Sequence record: PQ010280.1 | Direction: 5' to 3' (one strand) | Source of the DNA: Escherichia phage vB_EcoM_CQ615 | DNA length: 39,709 bases | Shown here: in pieces, positions 3,550 through 39,709 of the stretch | Position numbering within the stretch: the stretch's first letter is position 1 | How the letters are laid out: each line of letters starts with the position of its first letter | Position numbers and translations under genes: made by a program | Notes under the pieces: generated by a model | Database searches by the model: none | The model's input: the letters and a program-made list of their open reading frames with translations, nothing else | What the model was told of the DNA's origin: nothing

Positions 3550-6201
3550 ATGAGCACGATTAACATCGCTAAGAACGATTTCTCTGACATCGAACTGGCT
3601 GCTATCCCGTTCAACACTCTGGCTGACCACTATGGTGAGCGTCTAGCTCGCGAACAGTTGGCCCTTGAGCATGAGTCTTACGAGATGGGCGAGGCACGTT
3701 TCCGCAAGATGTTTGAGCGTCAACTCAAGGCCGGTGAGGTTGCAGACAATGCGGCTGCTAAGCCACTGATTACTACTCTACTGCCCAAGATGGTTACACG
3801 CATCAACGACTGGTTTGAGGAAGTGAAAGCTAAGCGTGGCAAACGTCCAACCGCTTTCCAGTTCCTGCAAGGAATCAAGCCGGAAGCCGTAGCGTATATC
3901 ACCATTAAGACTACTCTTGCTTGCCTAACGAGCGTAGACAATACAACCGTTCAGGCTGTAGCAAGCGCCATCGGACGGGCTATCGAGGAAGAGGCTCGCT
4001 TCGGTCGAATCCGTGACCTAGAAGCTAAGCACTTCAAGAAAAACGTTGAGGAACAACTAAACAAGCGCGTAGGGCACGTCTATAAGAAAGCATTCATGCA
4101 AGTAGTAGAGGCCGATATGCTCTCTAAGGGTCTACTCGGTGGCGAGGCGTGGTCTACATGGCACAAGGAAGATTCCATTCACGTAGGTGTGCGCTGCATT
4201 GAGATGCTCATTGAGTCCACCGGAATGGTTAGCTTGCACCGCCAAAATGCTGGCGTAGTGGGCCAAGACTCTGAGACTATCGAGCTGGCACACGAATACG
4301 CTGAGGCTATCGCAACACGGGCTGGGGCACTGGCGGGTATCTCTCCGATGTATCAGCCTTGCATAGTACCGCCTAAACCTTGGACCGGTGTAACTGGTGG
4401 TGGATACTGGGCCAACGGTCGCCGTCCACTGGTACTGGTGCGTACCCACAGCAAGAAGGCACTGATGCGCTACGAAGATGTTTACATGCCTGAGGTATAC
4501 AAGGCGATCAACATTGCGCAAAACACCGCTTGGAAAATCAACAAGAAAGTCCTAGCGGTCGCCAACGTAATCACCAAGTGGAAGCACTGCCCGGTCGAGG
4601 ACATCCCAGCGATTGAACGTGAAGAACTCCCGATGAAACCGGAAGACATCGACACGAATCCTGAGGCTCTCACTGCATGGAAACGTGCCGCTGCCGCTGT
4701 GTACCGTAAAGACAAGGCTCGCAAGTCTCGCCGCATAAGCCTTGAGTTCATGCTTGAGCAAGCCAATAAGTTCGCTAACCATAAGGCCATCTGGTTCCCT
4801 TACAACATGGACTGGCGCGGTCGTGTTTACGCTGTGTCAATGTTCAACCCGCAAGGTAACGACATGACCAAGGGACTGCTGACACTGGCTAAGGGTAAAC
4901 CAATCGGTAAAGAAGGTTACTACTGGCTGAAAATCCACGGTGCAAACTGTGCGGGTGTCGATAAGGTTCCGTTCCCTGAGCGCATCAAGTTCATTGAGGA
5001 CAACCACGAGAACATCATGGCTTGCGCTAAGTCTCCTCTGGAGAACACTTGGTGGGCTGAGCAAGATTCTCCGTTCTGCTTCCTTGCGTTCTGCTTTGAG
5101 TACGCTGGGGTACAACACCACGGCCTTAGCTACAACTGCTCTCTTCCGCTGGCGTTCGATGGGTCTTGCTCTGGTATTCAGCACTTCTCCGCGATGCTCC
5201 TTGATGAGATAGGTGGTCGTGCGGTTAACCTGCTGCCTAGTGAAACCGTTCAGGACATCTACGGGATTGTCGCTAAGAAAGTCAACGTGATTCTGCAAGA
5301 AGACGTAATCAACGGGACCGACAACGAAGTAGTTACCGTGACTGATGAGAACACTGGCGAAATCTCTGAGAAAGTTAAGCTGGGCACCAAGGCATTGGCT
5401 GGTCAGTGGTTGGCTTACGGTGTTACTCGCAGCGTGACTAAGCGTTCAGTCATGACGCTGGCTTACGGGTCCAAAGAGTTCGGCTTCCGTCAACAAGTGC
5501 TGGAAGATACCATTCAGCCAGCTATTGATTCCGGTAAAGGTCTGATGTTCACTCAACCGAATCAGGCCGCTGGATACATGGCGAAACTGATTTGGGAAGC
5601 TGTGAGCGTCACGGTGGTAGCTGCGGTTGAAGCAATGAACTGGCTTAAGTCTGCCGCTAAGCTGCTGGCTGCTGAGGTCAAAGATAAGAAGACTGGAGAG
5701 ATTCTTCGCAAGCGTTGCGCTGTGCATTGGGTAACTCCTGATGGGTTCCCAGTGTGGCAGGAATACAAGAAGCCAATTCAGACTCGCTTGAACCTGATGT
5801 TCCTCGGTCAGTTCCGCTTACAGCCGACCATTAACACCAACAAAGACAGCGAGATTGATGCACACAAACAGGAGTCCGGTATTGCTCCTAACTTTGTACA
5901 CAGCCAAGATGGTAGCCACCTGCGTAAGACTGTAGTGTGGGCGCATGAGAAGTACGGAATCGAATCATTTGCGTTGATTCACGACTCCTTCGGGACCATT
6001 CCGGCTGACGCTGCCAACCTGTTCAAAGCTGTTCGCGAAACTATGGTTGACACCTATGAGTCTTGCGATGTACTGGCTGACTTCTATGAGCAGTTCGCTG
6101 ACCAGTTACATGAGTCTCAATTGGATAAAATGCCAGCACTTCCGGCTAAAGGTAACTTGAATCTCCAAGACATCCTTAAGTCAGACTTCGCGTTCGCGTA
6201 A
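3550..6201 (+). CDS. 1: Single-subunit DNA-dependent RNA polymerase (gp1)
   Basis: 883 aa, near-identical to T7 RNAP including the specificity loop (QPTINTNKDSEIDAHKQESGIAPNFVHSQDGSH) and C-terminal FAFA; matches the T7-type promoters in the window. Confidence 0.98.
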   Translation: MSTINIAKNDFSDIELAAIPFNTLADHYGERLAREQLALEHESYEMGEARFRKMFERQLKAGEVADNAAAKPLITTLLPKMVTRINDWFEEVKAKRGKRPTAFQFLQGIKPEAVAYITIKTTLACLTSVDNTTVQAVASAIGRAIEEEARFGRIRDLEAKHFKKNVEEQLNKRVGHVYKKAFMQVVEADMLSKGLLGGEAWSTWHKEDSIHVGVRCIEMLIESTGMVSLHRQNAGVVGQDSETIELAHEYAEAIATRAGALAGISPMYQPCIVPPKPWTGVTGGGYWANGRRPLVLVRTHSKKALMRYEDVYMPEVYKAINIAQNTAWKINKKVLAVANVITKWKHCPVEDIPAIEREELPMKPEDIDTNPEALTAWKRAAAAVYRKDKARKSRRISLEFMLEQANKFANHKAIWFPYNMDWRGRVYAVSMFNPQGNDMTKGLLTLAKGKPIGKEGYYWLKIHGANCAGVDKVPFPERIKFIEDNHENIMACAKSPLENTWWAEQDSPFCFLAFCFEYAGVQHHGLSYNCSLPLAFDGSCSGIQHFSAMLLDEIGGRAVNLLPSETVQDIYGIVAKKVNVILQEDVINGTDNEVVTVTDENTGEISEKVKLGTKALAGQWLAYGVTRSVTKRSVMTLAYGSKEFGFRQQVLEDTIQPAIDSGKGLMFTQPNQAAGYMAKLIWEAVSVTVVAAVEAMNWLKSAAKLLAAEVKDKKTGEILRKRCAVHWVTPDGFPVWQEYKKPIQTRLNLMFLGQFRLQPTINTNKDSEIDAHKQESGIAPNFVHSQDGSHLRKTVVWAHEKYGIESFALIHDSFGTIPADAANLFKAVRETMVDTYESCDVLADFYEQFADQLHESQLDKMPALPAKGNLNLQDILKSDFAFA

Positions 6202-6852: not shown

Positions 6853-7878
6853 ATGATGAACATTAAGACCAACCCATTCAAAGCCGTGTCTTTCATAGAG
6901 TCTGCCATTAAGAAAGCTCTGGATAACGCTGGGTATCTTATTGCTGACATTAAGTACGATGGTGTGCGTGGTAACATCTGCGTAGACAATACCGCTAACT
7001 GCTGCTGGCTCTCTCGTGTATCCAAACCGATTCCGGCACTGTCTTACCTTAATGGGTTCGACGCACGTTGGCAGCGTCTACTAAAGGATGACCGTTGCTT
7101 CTACCCTGATGGCTTCATGCTGGATTGCGAACTTATGGTCAAGGGAGTGGACTTCAACACTGGCTCCGGCCTTCTGCGGACCAAGTGGCTCAACAAGAAG
7201 AACATGCAGTTCGATATTGGAGGTCCGTATGAATCGTGGGACGTGAGCCTGAAGGGACTTCCTTTCGGTATTGACCCGAACTTACTAACAGTTAAACTCT
7301 ACGCTATCCTTCCGTACCACATTGTGGAATCTGGGGAAGACTGTGATGTCATGACGTTGCTCATGCAGGAACACGTTAAGAACATGCTGCCTCTGCTACA
7401 GGAATACTTTCCTGAAATCGAATGGCAAGCGGCTGAGTCTTACGAGGTTTACGACATGGTAGAACTACAGCAACTGTACGAGAAGAAGCGTGAAGAAGGG
7501 CATGAGGGTCTCATTGTGAAAGACCCGATGTGCATCTACAAGCGCGGTAAGAAGTCCGGCTGGTGGAAACTTAAGCCTCTTGAGGAAGCTGACGGTATCA
7601 TTCAAGGTGTAAACTGGGGAACCGAAGGGCTTGCTAACGAAGGTAAGGTAATTGGATTCAAGGTGCTTCTTGAGACTGGTCGTCTTGTGGATGCCAATAA
7701 CATCTCTCGCGCCTTAATGGATGAATTTACAGCTAACGTTAAAGAACATGGCGAGGACTATTATAATGGCTGGGCTTGCCAGATTGGATTTATGGAGGAA
7801 ACACCAGATGGCTCATTGCGTCACCCGTCCTTCACCTGCTTCCGAGGAACTGAGGACAATCCGAAAGAGAAAGTATAA
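6853..7878 (+). CDS. 1.3: ATP-dependent DNA ligase (gp1.3)
   Basis: 341 aa, MMNIKTNPFKAVSF..., adenylation motif KYDGVRG; T7 ligase-like but shorter (T7: 359 aa) with divergent internal patches. Confidence 0.93.
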   Translation: MMNIKTNPFKAVSFIESAIKKALDNAGYLIADIKYDGVRGNICVDNTANCCWLSRVSKPIPALSYLNGFDARWQRLLKDDRCFYPDGFMLDCELMVKGVDFNTGSGLLRTKWLNKKNMQFDIGGPYESWDVSLKGLPFGIDPNLLTVKLYAILPYHIVESGEDCDVMTLLMQEHVKNMLPLLQEYFPEIEWQAAESYEVYDMVELQQLYEKKREEGHEGLIVKDPMCIYKRGKKSGWWKLKPLEEADGIIQGVNWGTEGLANEGKVIGFKVLLETGRLVDANNISRALMDEFTANVKEHGEDYYNGWACQIGFMEETPDGSLRHPSFTCFRGTEDNPKEKV

Positions 7879-8278
7879 GTATAACCCTGCGGCTCCTTCG
7901 GGAGTCATTTCTGCCTCTGGTAAACCCATAGGGTACAAGCGGAAAGATGGGTATTGGGTTCTTTCTTATGGAGGAAAGCAGTTACTTGCACACAGGGTGG
8001 TCTGGATGCTTAACTTCGGTGCAATACCCGATGGAATGGTGATAGACCACATTAACAGAAACCCTAGCGACAACCGCATAGAGAATCTTCGAGTAGTAAC
8101 TCAATCAGCTAACCTAAGGAATGTAGGCGTCCGGTCTCACTGTAGGAGTGGAGAGAAGTTTATCTCCCTTGATGTGAGAACCGGACGTTTTTCCGTTCGT
8201 ATCAGGAGAAAATCCTATGGAACATATGGTACTCTCGAAGAGGCTATAGCTGTGCGCGATGCTAATACGACTCACTAA
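7808..8278 (+). CDS. HNH endonuclease with AP2-like DNA-binding tail (homing-endonuclease-like); start uncertain
   Basis: Open frame to TAA 8276-8278; HNH core GYWVLSYGGKQLLAHRVVWMLNFGAIPDGMVIDHINRNPSDNRIENLRVVTQSANLRN, then SVRIRRKSYGTYGTLEEAIAVRDAN; the only in-frame ATG before the HNH core with an SD (GGAGGA 7794-7799) is 7808, inside the ligase 3' end; no ATG/GTG/TTG lies between the ligase stop and the core. Confidence 0.55.
   Translation: MAHCVTRPSPASEELRTIRKRKYKYNPAAPSGVISASGKPIGYKRKDGYWVLSYGGKQLLAHRVVWMLNFGAIPDGMVIDHINRNPSDNRIENLRVVTQSANLRNVGVRSHCRSGEKFISLDVRTGRFSVRIRRKSYGTYGTLEEAIAVRDANTTH
7888..7912 (+). terminator. Weak hairpin after the ligase gene (possible early terminator TE analogue)
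   Basis: ggctcc-ttcg-ggagtc: 6-bp stem with one G-U pair and a UUCG tetraloop, followed by auuucu; position matches where T7 places TE. Confidence 0.3.
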
Positions 8279-10097: not shown

Positions 10098-10553
10098 GTG
10101 GCTGGCGCATACGCTGCGCGTGGTATCAGAAAGGTCGGGACATTCCGTTCCGGCCTAGAAGATAAGGTCTCTAAGCAGCTAGAGGGTAAGGGTATTAAGT
10201 TCGATTATGAACTGTGGAAAATCCCTTACGTTGTCCCTGCGAGCAACCATGTGTATACTCCAGACTTCCTGCTGCCTAACGGAATCTTTATTGAAACCAA
10301 AGGTTTATGGGAGAGTGACGACCGAAAGAAACACTTATTGATTCGCGAACAGTTTCCTGAACTGGACATCCGTCTGGTGTTCTCAAGCTCACGCACCAAG
10401 CTATACAAAGGGTCTCCGACCAGTTACGGCGAATGGTGTGAGAAGCACGGTATTCTGTTTGCTGACAAATTAATTCCTGTAGAATGGCTCAAAGAACCCA
10501 AAAAGGAGGTGCCATTTGACAAGCTGAAACAATCGAAGGGAGGAAAGAAATAA
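10098..10553 (+). CDS. 3: Endonuclease I, Holliday-junction resolvase (gp3)
   Basis: 151 aa, GTG start right after the 2.5 stop; ...YTPDFLLPNGIFIETKGLWESDDRKKHLLIREQFPELDIRLVF... Confidence 0.93.
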   Translation: MAGAYAARGIRKVGTFRSGLEDKVSKQLEGKGIKFDYELWKIPYVVPASNHVYTPDFLLPNGIFIETKGLWESDDRKKHLLIREQFPELDIRLVFSSSRTKLYKGSPTSYGEWCEKHGILFADKLIPVEWLKEPKKEVPFDKLKQSKGGKK

Positions 10554-13867: not shown

Positions 13868-15982
13868 ATGATCGTTTCTGACATCGAAGCTAACGCCCTC
13901 TTAGAGAGCGTCACTAAGTTCCACTGCGGGGTTATCTACGACTACTCCACCGCTGAGTACGTAAGCTACCGTCCGAGTGACTTCGGTGCGTATCTGGATG
14001 CGCTGGAAGCCGAGGTTGCACGAGGCGGTCTTATTGTGTTCCACAACGGTCACAAGTATGACGTTCCCGCATTGACCAAACTGGCAAAGCTACAATTGAA
14101 CCGAGAGTTCCACCTTCCTCGTGAGAACTGTATCGACACCCTTGTGCTGTCACGCTTGATTCACTCTAACCTAAAGGACACCGATATGGGTCTTCTTCGT
14201 TCCGGTAAACTGCCGGGGAAACGATTTGGGTCTCACGCTTTGGAGGCGTGGGGCTATCGCTTAGGTGAAATGAAGGGTGAATACAAAGATGACTTTAAGC
14301 GTATGCTTGAAGAGCAGGGTGAAGAATACATCGACGGAATGGAATGGTGGAACTTCAACGAAGAGATGATGGACTATAACGTTCAGGACGTTGTGGTCAC
14401 TAAGGCTCTCCTTGAGAAGCTACTCTCTGACAAACATTACTTCCCTCCTGAGATTGACTTTACGGACGTAGGTTACACTACGTTCTGGTCAGAATCCCTT
14501 GAGGCCGTTGATGTTGAACATCGCGCTGCATGGCTACTCGCTAAGCAAGAGCGCAATGGATTCCCGTTTGACACAAAAGCAATCGAAGAGTTGTACGTAG
14601 AGTTAGCTGCTAGACGCTCTGAGTTGCTACGTAAATTGACCGAAACGTTTGGCTCGTGGTATCAACCTAAAGGTGGCACCGAAATGTTCTGCCATCCACG
14701 AACAGGTAAGCCGCTGCCTAAATACCCTCGCATTAAGACACCTAAAGTTGGTGGCATCTTTAAGAAGCCTAAGAACAAGGCACAGCGAGAAGGCCGTGAG
14801 CCTTGCGAACTGGATACCCGCGAGTACGTTGCTGGTGCTCCGTATACTCCAGTAGAGCACGTAGTGTTTAACCCTTCGTCTCGTGACCACATCCAGAAGA
14901 AACTCCAAGAGGCAGGATGGGTCCCCACGAAGTACACCGATAAGGGTGCGCCTGTGGTGGACGATGAGGTACTCGAAGGAGTACGTGTAGATGACCCTGA
15001 GAAGCAAGCTGCTATCGACCTCATTAAAGAGTACCTGATGATTCAGAAGCGAATCGGACAGTCTGCTGAGGGAGACAAGGCGTGGCTTCGTTACGTTGCT
15101 GAGGATGGTAAAATTCATGGTTCTGTTAATCCCAACGGCGCTGTTACTGGGCGCGCTACTCACGCTTTCCCTAACCTCGCACAGATACCCGGTGTCCGTT
15201 CTCCTTATGGTGATAAGTGCCGCGCTGCTTTTGGCGCTGAACATCACCTAGACGGTATTACTGGTAAGCCTTGGGTTCAGGCAGGCATCGACGCATCCGG
15301 CCTTGAGTTGCGCTGCTTGGCCCACTTCATGGCTCGCTTTGATAACGGTGAGTACGCTCACGAGATTCTTAACGGTGACATCCACACTAAGAACCAGATG
15401 GCTGCCGAATTGCCTACCCGAGATAACGCTAAGACGTTCATCTATGGGTTCCTTTATGGTGCTGGTGATGAGAAGATTGGACAGATTGTCGGTGCTGGTA
15501 AAGAGCGCGGTAAGGAACTCAAGAAGAAATTCCTTGAGAACACCCCAGCGATTGCCGCACTCCGAGAGTCTATCCAACAAACACTTGTTGAGTCCTCTCA
15601 GTGGGTAGCTGGTGAACAGCAAGTCAAGTGGAAACGTCGGTGGATTAAAGGTCTGGATGGTCGTAAGGTACACGTTCGTAGTCCTCACGCTGCGCTTAAC
15701 ACCCTTCTACAATCTGCTGGTGCGCTTATCTGCAAACTGTGGATTATCAAGACCGAAGAGATGCTCGTAGAGAAAGGCTTGAAGCATGGCTGGGATGGGG
15801 ACTTTGCGTACATGGCATGGGTACATGACGAAATCCAAGTAGGTTGTCGTACCGAAGAGATTGCCCAGGTGGTCATTGAGACCGCACAGGAAGCGATGCG
15901 CTGGGTAGGGGACCACTGGAACTTCCGGTGCCTTCTTGATACCGAAGGTAAGATGGGTCCTAATTGGGCCGTATGTCACTAA
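13868..15982 (+). CDS. 5: DNA polymerase with 3'-5' exonuclease and thioredoxin-binding loop (gp5)
   Basis: 704 aa, [26 protein letters not shown]..., family A pol motifs; T7 gp5 length and sequence. Confidence 0.98.
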
Positions 15983-16001
15983 TTCTATAGGAGAGATAGT
16001 C

Positions 16002-16232
16002 ATGGCTACTTGGAAATATAGGATAGTAGAACTTGAAACCACAGAGGGTACTGTCCTGTATTCGCCACAGTTCAGGCACAAGTGGTTCCCGTTCTGGAGT
16101 CACTTTTGCAGCTATGTAGACGAGCGACGACTTGTGTTTGCCGACATCGAAGATGCTAAACGGTTTCTTAGCGAAACACGCGCTAACGATGAACCAGAAG
16201 TTAAGAAAGTAAGAAAAATCCATTCACTCTAA
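16002..16232 (+). CDS. Hypothetical 76-aa protein in the slot T7 uses for gene 5.3
   Basis: ATG 16002 with SD ataggagagatag; MATWKYRIVELETTEGTVLYSPQFRHKWFPFWSHFCSYVDERRLVFADIEDAKRFLSETRANDEPEVKKVRKIHSL; no HNH motif; no family recognised. Confidence 0.6.
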   Translation: MATWKYRIVELETTEGTVLYSPQFRHKWFPFWSHFCSYVDERRLVFADIEDAKRFLSETRANDEPEVKKVRKIHSL

Positions 16233-36316: not shown

Positions 36317-36763
36317 ATGCTGCAATTTTTACGTAAGCTGGTCCCTTGGGTTCTCGCTGGGATGCTATTCGGATGGGGATGGCACCTTGGGGCAGACTCA
36401 ATGGACGCCAAGTGGAAACAGGAGGTACAGAATGAGTACGTTAAGAGAGTTGAGGCTACAGCGAGCACTCAAAGAGCAATCAATGAAATATCGGCTAAGT
36501 ATCAAGAAGACCTTGCCGCGTTGGAAGGGAGCACTGATAGGATTATTTCTGATTTGCGTAGCGACAATAAGCGGCTGCGTGTCAGAGTCAAAACTACCGG
36601 AACCTCCGATGGTAAGTGTGGATTCGAGCCTGATGGTCGAGCCGAACTTGACGACCGAGATGCTAAAAGTATTCTCGCAGTGACCCAACGGGGTGACGCT
36701 TGGATTCGTGCCCTACAGGACACTATACTAGAGCTACAGAATAAGCAGGAGGTTAAACAATGA
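36317..36763 (+). CDS. 18.5: i-spanin (Rz-like, gp18.5)
   Basis: 148 aa, N-terminal TM ([25 protein letters not shown]) plus coiled-coil periplasmic domain. Confidence 0.88.
36432..36683 (+). CDS. 18.7: o-spanin (Rz1-like lipoprotein, gp18.7), embedded in 18.5 in the +1 frame
   Basis: 83 aa from the internal ATG; lipobox-like [10 protein letters not shown] and proline-rich stretch; [59 protein letters not shown]... Confidence 0.75.
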   Translation: MSTLRELRLQRALKEQSMKYRLSIKKTLPRWKGALIGLFLICVATISGCVSESKLPEPPMVSVDSSLMVEPNLTTEMLKVFSQ

Positions 36764-38532
36764 GGAAAGGTGTATCCGCTCAGTCCAATCGTAATGCGCT
36801 CGTTGTGGCGCAACTAAAGGGCGACTTCGTGGCGTTCCTGTTCGTCTTATGGAAGGCGTTAAACCTACCAGTGCCTACTAAGTGTCAAATTGACATGGCT
36901 AAGGTACTGGCGAATGGGGACAACAAGAAGTTCATCTTACAGGCTTTCCGTGGTATCGGTAAGTCGTTCATCACTTGTGCGTTCGTTGTGTGGTCATTAT
37001 GGAGGGACCCTCAGTTGAAGATACTTATCGTATCAGCTTCTAAAGAACGTGCAGACGCTAACTCCATATTCATCAAGAACATCATCGACCTGCTACCGTT
37101 TCTCAGTGAGTTGAAGCCGAGACCCGGACAGCGTGACTCTGTGATTAGTTTTGATGTTGGCCCTGCTAGTCCTGACCACTCTCCTAGTGTGAAATCAGTA
37201 GGTATCACTGGTCAGTTAACTGGTAGTCGTGCTGATATTATCATTGCGGATGACGTTGAGATTCCGTCTAACAGTGCGACTATGGGTGCCCGTGAGAAGC
37301 TATGGACTCTAGTTCAGGAGTTCGCTGCGTTGCTTAAACCGCTGCCTACGTCTCGTGTTATCTACCTTGGTACTCCTCAGACTGAGATGACTCTGTATAA
37401 GGAACTGGAAGATAACCGTGGGTATACAACCATTATCTGGCCTGCTCTGTACCCAAGGACTCGTGAGGAGAACCTCTACTACTCTCAGCGTCTGGCTCCA
37501 ATGCTCCGTGCGGAGTACGATGAGAACCCTGAGGCACTCGCTGGGACTCCTACGGACCCTGTGCGCTTCGACCGTGATGACCTACGTGAGCGTGAGTTGG
37601 AATATGGTAAGGCTGGCTTTACGTTGCAGTTCATGCTTAACCCGAACCTGAGTGATGCCGAGAAGTACCCTCTGAGGCTCCGTGACGCTATCGTAGCGGC
37701 CTTAGACTTAGAGAAGGCCCCGATGCATTACCAGTGGCTTCCGAACCGTCAGAACATCATTGAGGACCTTCCTAACGTTGGCCTTAAGGGTGATGACCTT
37801 CATACATACCATGAGTGCTCAAATAACTCTGGTCAGTATCAACAGAAGATTCTGGTCATTGACCCTAGTGGTCGCGGTAAGGATGAAACAGGTTACGCTG
37901 TACTGTATACCCTAAACGGTTACATCTACCTCATGGAAGCTGGTGGTTTCCGTGATGGCTACTCCGATAAGACCCTTGAGTTGCTCGCTAAGAAAGCTAA
38001 GCAATGGGGAGTCCAGACGGTTGTCTACGAGAGTAACTTCGGTGACGGTATGTTTGGTAAGGTATTCAGTCCTATCCTTCTTAAACACCACAACTGTGCG
38101 ATGGAAGAGATTCGTGCCCGTGGTATGAAGGAGATGCGCATTTGTGATACCCTTGAGCCAGTCATGCAGACTCACCGCCTTGTCATTCGAGATGAGGTCA
38201 TTCGGGCAGACTATCAGTCCGCTCGTGACATAGACGGTAAGCATGACGTTAAGTATTCGCTGTTCTACCAGATGACCCGTATCACTCGTGAGAAGGGTGC
38301 TCTGGCTCATGATGACCGATTGGATGCCCTTGCGTTAGGCATTGAGTACCTCCGTGAGTCCATGCAATTAGATTCCGTTAAGGTCGAAGGTGAAGTGCTT
38401 ACTGACTTCCTTGAGGAACACATGATGCGTCCTACGGTTGCTGCTACGCATATCATTGAGATGTCTGTAGGAGGAGTTGATGTGTACTCTGAGGACGATG
38501 AGGGTTACGGTACGTCTTTCATTGAGTGGTGA
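36760..38532 (+). CDS. 19: Terminase large subunit (gp19)
   Basis: 590 aa; ATPase Walker A-like region (FRGIGKSF), nuclease domain; near-identical to T7 gp19 after the first residues. Confidence 0.97.
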
Positions 38533-38569
38533 TTTATGAGGCCAAGGAAGGCCGCTTTAAGGAGGTAAT

Positions 38570-39013
38570 ATGATAAGCAAGAAGAAGTATGTTGTCGATA
38601 AGGAGACTGGTTGCTGGAACTTTAAGGGATGTAAGACTAAGACTGGTTATGGTCGTATTCGCGTGAATGGAGTCCATTGGATGGCCCACAGGTATTCCCT
38701 GAGTTGTCATCTAGGCAGACCGATAGCTGACGAAATGGTTGTGATGCACATGTGTGATAACCCCTCATGTGTTAACCCTGAGCACCTTAAGGAAGGGACT
38801 CAGAAGGAAAACATAGAGGACTGCATATCAAAAGGTCGCGCAACTAAGGCCACAGGTAAACGCGATGCGTCGAAGAGAGACCCTAGCGAGGAACGTAAGG
38901 CTATAGTTATTCGTAGATACCATAAAGGCTGGACCGCAACGTCCATAGCGAGATACCATAAGCTCTCTGTGGCGTGGGTCAAGAGGGTCATTGAGGATTA
39001 CCTAAGTGATTGA
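38570..39013 (+). CDS. HNH endonuclease with C-terminal helix-turn-helix, directly downstream of the terminase
   Basis: ATG 38570 with SD aaggagg; 147 aa; GCWNFKGCKTKTGYGRIRVNGVHWMAHRYS...MHMCDNPSCVNPEHLKEGTQKENIEDC (classic HNH), then basic linker and HTH-like RRYHKGWTATSIARYHKLSVAWVKRVI. Confidence 0.8.
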   Translation: MISKKKYVVDKETGCWNFKGCKTKTGYGRIRVNGVHWMAHRYSLSCHLGRPIADEMVVMHMCDNPSCVNPEHLKEGTQKENIEDCISKGRATKATGKRDASKRDPSEERKAIVIRRYHKGWTATSIARYHKLSVAWVKRVIEDYLSD

Positions 39014-39064
39014 TATTTGAAATTAGTGATACAGGTCTAAGTGTATGATTACAGACCATTATTC

Positions 39065-39087
39065 TAATTCGACTCACTATAGGGAGA
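39065..39087 (+). promoter_or_regulatory. Phage RNAP promoter phiOR-like
   Basis: taattcgactcactatagggaga (one mismatch from consensus). Confidence 0.75.
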
Positions 39088-39178
39088 AGCCTACCTAAAG
39101 ATTACTATAAGACTTAAAGTTGCCTATAAGGTAGGTTGTTATTATTGTTAATACAACCAACATAAAGGGAGGAGACTC

Positions 39179-39328
39179 ATGTTCCGCTTATTGTTGAACC
39201 TACTGCGGCATAGAGTCACCTATCGCTTTCTTGTGGTACTTTGTGCTGCCCTTGGGTACGCATCTCTTAATGGAGACCTCAGTTCACTGGAGTCTACCGT
39301 TTGCTCTTTACTCACTTGTAGTGATTAA
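39179..39328 (+). CDS. 19.5: gp19.5-like small membrane protein
   Basis: 49 aa, SD aaagggaggag; MFRLLLNLLRHRVTYRFLVVLCAALGYASLNGDLSSLESTVCSLLTCSD. Confidence 0.75.
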   Translation: MFRLLLNLLRHRVTYRFLVVLCAALGYASLNGDLSSLESTVCSLLTCSD

Positions 39329-39399
39329 GGTATTCCTGACCGACTGACGGCTCACCGAGGGATTCGTAGGTATGATTACATCACACCAACTCATCCCTA

Positions 39400-39582
39400 T
39401 ATAGTCAAGTCCTAAGGTATACCCATAAAGAGCCTCTAATGGTCTATCCTAAGGTCTATACCTAAAGATAGGCCATCCTATCAGTGTCACCTAAAGAGGG
39501 TCTTAGAGAGGGCCTAGGGAGTTCCTAGAGGGTCCTTTAAAATATACCATAAAAATCTGAGTGACTATCTCACAATGTACGG
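39400..39582 (+). repeat. Right-end array of short CCTAAAG/CCTAAGG-type repeats preceding the terminal repeat
   Basis: agtcctaaggtatacc...atcctaaggtctatacctaaagataggcc...gtcacctaaagaggg; mirrors the left-end array. Confidence 0.5.
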
Positions 39583-39709
39583 ACCTAAAGTTCCCCCATA
39601 GGGGTACCTAAAGCCCAGCCAATCACCTAAAGTCAACCTTCGGTTGACCTTGAGGGTTCCCTAGGGTTGGGATGACCCTTTGGTTTACCTTTGAGTGTCT
39701 CCTTGTCCC
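39583..39709. repeat. Right copy of the direct terminal repeat (runs to the window end)
   Basis: Identical to 1..127; upstream 39569-39582 (tctcacaatgtacgg) resembles the start of the T7 terminal repeat, so the true repeat is probably about 141 nt or more. Confidence 0.9.

Follow-up and report, generated by a model that had tools for sequence, protein, structure and literature searches.

The 147-amino-acid open reading frame (ORF) that follows the large terminase gene of this phage is very probably a free-standing gene for a predicted HNH (His-Me finger) homing endonuclease. We assign it to the 'gene 19.4' lineage, a selfish and mobile gene lodged in T7-like phages in the spacer between the terminase gene and phiOR, a promoter and origin required by T7 for the processing of concatemers. 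[quoted passage not shown]

Locus and cassette anatomy

The window, by which we mean the whole stretch of 39,709 nt analysed here, is a complete T7-like genome (Teseptimavirus) with about 92–94% identity to phages C5 and N30 across the first 25 kb. The ORF and its surroundings comprise the following features.

36760..38532, + strand: gene 19, large terminase subunit, 590 aa, defined as an ORF; upstream neighbour, outside the mobile cassette
38539..39156, + strand: divergent cassette of 618 nt in place of 230 nt of T7 (T7 39138–39367); holds the HNH gene and the spacer, phiOR variant and leader that go with it
38540..38553, + strand: small stem-loop GGCCAAGGAAGGCC, then CTTTAAG, from local alignments to carrier-free alleles of several genera
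38559–38566, + strand: strong Shine-Dalgarno sequence of the HNH gene, AAGGAGGT, read off the sequence
38570..39013, + strand: HNH homing-endonuclease-like ORF, 147 aa, ATG start, orthologue of phage 13a gene 19.4
38684..38812, + strand: HNH_3/His-Me finger nuclease core, aa 39–81, from Pfam, a 49-sequence alignment, AlphaFold and Foldseek
38879..39004, + strand: C-terminal helix-turn-helix, aa 104–145, presumed DNA-recognition domain, from Pfam HTH_23 and the model helices
39014..39064, + strand: spacer of 51 nt from the HNH stop codon to the promoter, from a local alignment to another T7-like locus (L018)
39065..39087, + strand: phiOR-equivalent T7-class promoter TAATTCGACTCACTATAGGGAGA, one mismatch to the consensus
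39179..39328, + strand: gene 19.5, 49 aa, downstream neighbour; backbone homology is back from its Shine-Dalgarno sequence, 39157 onward

The product of gene 19 matches the Pfam family Terminase-T7_RNaseH-like (PF22530, E 5.7e-40) as well as Terminase_6N, and shares 99% amino acid identity with T7-group terminases. Its TGA stop codon (38530–38532) is separated by 37 nt from the ATG of the HNH gene. The first-pass annotation had described a 147-aa HNH and helix-turn-helix ORF just past the terminase gene with a strong Shine-Dalgarno sequence of its own; the ORF, the peptide motifs ETGCWNFKGCKTKTGYGRIRVNG and HMCDNPSCVNPEHLKEGTQKENIEDC within it, the ribosome-binding sequence and the Pfam domains given below confirm this description. 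It was likewise correct that T7 has no protein gene between gene 19 and phiOR, as no gene is annotated in the T7 interval from gene 19 to gene 19.5, and that the region is remodelled relative to T7, measuring 618 nt here as against 230 nt.

Homology between the window and T7 runs at about 91% through gene 19, ends right after TGATTTATG (window 38538) and restarts at CCAACATAAAGGGAGGAG (window 39157) in the ribosome-binding region of gene 19.5. Both breakpoints of the cassette are sharp, the one immediately past TGATTTATG and the other immediately before CCAACATAAAGG. The change looks like an allele replacement that kept some residual homology rather than a clean insertion, since the collections searched hold no 'empty' version of the window-type spacer: neither a search of GenBank phages nor an exact-pattern scan of IMG/VR returned the same phiOR variant without the HNH gene. 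In these two collections, every genome with the right-hand part of the cassette has the HNH gene as well.

At the left end of the cassette, the stem-loop GGCCAAGGAAGGCC corresponds to GACCACGGATGGTC..CTTTAAG of T7 and is a remnant of a conserved post-terminase element, while the preceding T7 element, GCATTAGGACTGCATAGGGATGCACT, is missing from the left flank of the window. Carrier-free T7-like phages of several genera have conserved weak stem-loops past the terminase stop codon (ATGCA..TGCAT, then GACCACGGATGGTC or GGCCACGGAAGGCC; T7 locus L001 1955–2015, L039 4253–4300, L027 4259–4325), of which the window keeps only the second (38540–38553). The folding energies of these stem-loops are about those of shuffled sequence in T7 and in the window (z = 0.07 and –0.66, respectively) and modestly lower in two other lineages.

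Part of the spacer downstream of the HNH gene (39014..39064) has homology to the spacer that precedes the promoter in other T7-like lineages (CTAAGT..TGATTAC). This homology was taken from local alignments; a three-way MAFFT alignment placed pieces of the T7 spacer spuriously inside the ORF. A promoter scan of the window returned 11 promoter-like sites where none is expected by chance; the stretch from phi17 (33564) to the HNH ORF is free of T7-type promoters. In phage 13a, phiOR is annotated at the site equivalent to window 39065–39087, and the leader that follows this promoter in the window is closer to the leaders of other T7-like lineages than to that of T7. The single mismatch is an A-to-T change at the fifth base (TAATTCGACTCAC...), whereas the five class III-type promoters of the window have the exact consensus. 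As a further observation on this interval, TAGTGACTACTCT occurs about 11 times in tandem in the stretch from phiOR to gene 19.5 of a Yep-phi-like Berlinvirus (L035, about 4900–5040), as against one or two copies in its relatives.

An intact nuclease under purifying selection

The ORF encodes an intact predicted nuclease fused to a helix-turn-helix domain. The HNH assignment made on first pass is borne out by a significant match to the Pfam profile HNH_3 (PF13392) at aa 39–81, with E 6.2e-8 and 32.6 bits against a cut-off of 24.8. HTH_23 matches at aa 104–145 (E 2.7e-6; 27.4 bits, cut-off 24.6), and the zinc-loop family zf-His_Me_endon scores 23.7 bits, slightly under its cut-off of 27. PF01844 was not among the Pfam matches at E ≤ 1. 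The protein also matches PHROG 6254, 'HNH endonuclease', from end to end (E 2.9e-59), while NCBIfam returned sub-threshold, irrelevant matches only. Across an alignment of 49 homologues, C15, H60, C62, C67, N69, H72 and N81 are invariant. H60, N69 and N81 among them provide the conserved catalytic histidine and metal-binding asparagines of HNH nucleases.

The AlphaFold model has a pLDDT of 88.6 with a pTM of only 0.57, and the relative placement of its domains is uncertain. Within the nuclease core, strands 57–60 and 73–76 followed by helix 78–87 form the expected ββα-metal fold. The C-terminal domain is built from three helices (105–118, 123–130 and 134–146), and a low-confidence linker (aa 90–104) joins the two parts in the model. 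Whereas a phmmer search against PDB sequences gave no match at E ≤ 1, Foldseek placed I-HmuI (1u3e) first among solved structures with a probability of 1.00 and a borderline E of 1.2e-3, followed by I-PpoI. Across carriers, dN/dS is about 0.09 in the HNH gene, compared with about 0.03 in the terminase gene, which indicates that the protein is maintained by selection.

Distribution and mobility

About 30 Teseptimavirus records have this gene annotated in the identical position. When window 36760–39709 was used as query, 29 phage records each covered at least 80% of it and hence include the ORF, whereas T7, C5, YpP-R and 04922B were matched only in two pieces, with 78–79% coverage. Phage 13a lists the gene as 'gene 19.4' (YP_002003987.1) and JeanTinguely as 'putative homing endonuclease'; HZ2R8, CICC 80001, N30, IME390, 3A_8767 and pO111 carry it under 'HNH endonuclease' or 'putative homing endonuclease'. 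At the protein level, identity is 69% to 13a and 93–98% to the other annotated carriers, reaching 98% in pO111. The novelty implied by the first-pass annotation therefore falls away, with the gene already deposited as gene 19.4 or HNH endonuclease in many genomes. It is known at the annotation level, and the window holds one more copy of an annotated, experimentally uncharacterised lineage of T7-like homing endonucleases; literature searches for gp19.4 and gene 19.4 returned nothing relevant. For new biology, the gene as such matters little.

Its pattern of occurrence is more telling. The gene is absent from T7, C5, YpP-R, 04922B, WW2 and many more phages. The closest relatives in IMG/VR and GenBank are split evenly, with eight carriers and eight non-carriers, so the gene is not the universal backbone gene that had been held open on first pass; where present, it always lies between gene 19 and phiOR. 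C5, without the gene, and N30, with it, are equally near the window across the first 25 kb. Presence or absence of the gene is thus independent of backbone relatedness.

Further afield, a threshold of E ≤ 1e-20 yields 106 phage records with a homologue, and all among those listed are T7-like phages. More distant homologues sit straight after the terminase gene in Berlinvirus (two of roughly ten genomes), in Pektosvirus MA1A and in Pantoea phage Bubbas. In T7-like phages of Klebsiella, an unrelated HNH_3 lineage occupies the same gap about 10 nt past the terminase stop codon. Its 144-aa gene has a canonical DHINRN..N motif (locus L050, 4262–4696) and recurs in five further loci (L043, L060, L066, L070 and L078). 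As at least two unrelated HNH lineages have settled there, we regard the gap between gene 19 and phiOR as a hot spot.

Evidence for mobility comes from phages HZ2R8 and HZP2, which differ at a single position from –100 to +600 around the ATG (about 700 nt) but at 2–17 positions per 100 nt elsewhere in gene 19. Synonymous divergence between the two follows the same course: dS reaches 0.27 in the terminase gene but is 0 in the HNH gene. This pattern is the mark of a recent transfer of the cassette between diverged backbones with a short co-conversion tract. The flanks are mosaic in general, and neither the last 300 nt of gene 19 nor gene 19.5 has a carrier-linked substitution. Because a phiOR variant and the 3' end of gene 19 move with the cassette, the region should be treated as recombinant in phylogenies and in the engineering of T7-like genomes. 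Homing and marker exclusion could be measured simply in T7-like phages with pairs of a carrier and a non-carrier, such as N30 and C5 or HZ2R8 and T7.

Two T7 proteins, gp7.7 (E 2e-17) and gp2.8 (E 3e-17), are paralogues of the HNH protein. The T7 accessory nuclease genes 2.8, 3.8, 5.3 (PD-(D/E)XK) and 7.7 are all missing from the window at their T7 positions, with junctions at 10101/10122, 11060/11257, 15969/16229 and 19241/19247. Such reshuffling of nuclease positions, here between T7 and the window, is what homing endonuclease genes typically show. The 5.3 slot of the window is taken by an unrelated ORF of 98 aa (15936–16232) with no Pfam match. Elsewhere, a second HNH_3 ORF of 185 aa (7721–8278, + strand; Pfam E 1.6e-20) encodes a relative of T7 gp3.8 with an AP2-like tail. 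As annotated, it begins within the 3' end of the ligase gene (6853–7878), at a place where T7 has no gene.

Proposed homing, alternatives and known systems

The first-pass annotation had proposed the conserved terminase gene as the target of homing, which finds no support, as none of the substitutions in the last 300 nt of gene 19 goes with carriage. The alleles do differ in the spacer from the gene 19 stop codon to phiOR. In carrier-free genomes of several genera, a conserved element ATGCA..TGCAT..GCACT follows the terminase stop codon, and the carrier alleles of Teseptimavirus, Berlinvirus and Pektosvirus that we inspected lack it at that place; GCACT-like fragments recur downstream of the HNH gene in some lineages. 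Both the lack of this element in the inspected carrier alleles and the absence of carrier-specific changes in gene 19 are suggestive of a putative target that lies in the spacer and not within the coding sequence of the terminase.

On this basis, a homing cycle can be sketched. The HNH gene would probably be transcribed late, on read-through mRNA of gene 19, since no T7-type promoter intervenes after phi17, and its own Shine-Dalgarno sequence would serve for its translation. In a mixed infection, the helix-turn-helix domain might bind a site in the spacer between gene 19 and phiOR of a carrier-free genome, which the HNH core would then nick or cut. Repair of the break by the T7 recombination machinery, using the carrier genome, would copy the cassette into the recipient, and adjacent markers, namely the phiOR variant and the last ~100 nt of gene 19, would be copied with it. 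The carrier genome itself would be immune through its replaced spacer.

Other roles for the protein have to be weighed against homing. As the first-pass annotation considered, it could be a functional partner of the terminase that aids concatemer cutting in packaging, like HK97 gp74 of the cos-type siphophages. The terminase gene directly adjoins the HNH gene in at least four T7-like lineages, co-transcription with gene 19 is probable as no promoter lies between the two, and the same idea has been raised for a homing endonuclease gene upstream of the terminase gene of Hafnia phage Ca (PMC8861465). However, the gene is missing from T7 and from about half of the closest relatives. Moreover, the terminase is of the T7 type (PF22530/Terminase_6N only) and not Terminase_1, to which HNH dependence is specific according to Kala et al. 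2014 as quoted in PMC8861465, and the HNH protein combines HNH_3 with a helix-turn-helix in place of a PF01844 match. Its closest T7 paralogues, gp7.7 and gp2.8, are encoded far from the terminase, and the unrelated HNH gene in the same gap of Klebsiella phages fits a mobile-gene hot spot better than a conserved partnership. A packaging partnership is thus largely refuted by distribution, and we consider it highly improbable. A regulator of the neighbouring phiOR promoter or replication origin, acting through the helix-turn-helix with an inactive nuclease, would be in keeping with a helix-turn-helix score above the Pfam cut-off and with the presence, 51 nt downstream of the gene, of a co-travelling phiOR variant. 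Yet the catalytic and zinc-ligand positions are all invariant across the 49 homologues, the same gene family adjoins an unchanged phiOR region in Berlinvirus, and T7 needs no such factor, which together leave a regulatory role extremely unlikely. An intron-encoded endonuclease of the I-HmuI or I-TslI type is excluded: the ORF is intergenic, genes 19 and 19.5 are intact, and an Rfam search of 36700–39709 gave no intron or other match at E ≤ 1.

A gene of homing-endonuclease origin might also be kept mainly for phage benefit, by attenuating a break-sensing host defence or by excluding competing T7-like phages. The purifying selection described above is consistent with such a benefit, as are the effects of other phage HNH proteins on the GAPS4 defence: T7 gp3.8 and an HNH protein of a BASEL phage are reported to blunt GAPS4 independently of catalysis, and T7 without three homing endonucleases is reported to lose competitions when GAPS4 is present (2025 preprint, 10.1101/2025.09.07.674715). 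However, the proteins of that preprint did not include gp19.4, no sequence feature bears on benefit, and an active homing element would be expected to be under purifying selection as well. We judge phage benefit unlikely to be the main reason for the retention of the gene, and it would be compatible with homing rather than an alternative to it. In a related vein, the nuclease might be more than a selfish passenger and favour carriers in mixed infections: it could cut competing genomes at a site critical for packaging or, as the preprint reports for T7 gp3.8, blunt a break-sensing defence. This doubtful idea stems from the constant proximity of the nuclease to the terminase gene and, in Teseptimavirus, from the phiOR variant that comes with it.

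Regarded as a free-standing homing endonuclease, the window protein can be placed among several known systems. HK97 gp74-type HNH proteins are likewise members of the HNH superfamily encoded beside terminase genes. They differ in their Pfam family, in the terminase family that they accompany and in cos packaging, whereas the window phage has direct terminal repeats. Whereas gp74 is essential and universal in its group (PMC8861465), the window gene is sporadic.

Comparison with I-HmuI of Bacillus phage SPO1 (PDB 1u3e) reveals a shared plan, in which a His-Me finger nuclease is followed by helical and helix-turn-helix DNA-binding parts. However, I-HmuI is encoded inside a group I intron and the window ORF is intergenic. 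The window protein further has an additional zinc-type Cys/His site, formed by C15, C62, C67 and H72, which we take to match that of I-PpoI in kind and residue spacing.

T7 gp7.7 and gp2.8 have the same HNH_3/zinc-loop core, with 35–44% identity across about 80–110 aa, and are likewise dispensable and sporadic. Unlike the window protein, neither has a Pfam helix-turn-helix match at E ≤ 0.01, and their genes lie elsewhere, between genes 7.3 and 8 for gp7.7 and between genes 2.5 and 3 for gp2.8. Phage 13a gene 19.4 and its counterparts in the other annotated carriers share with the window gene their position, length class, domain order and phiOR-containing right flank, and differ from it by point changes only, with small insertions in the inter-domain linker in the case of 13a.
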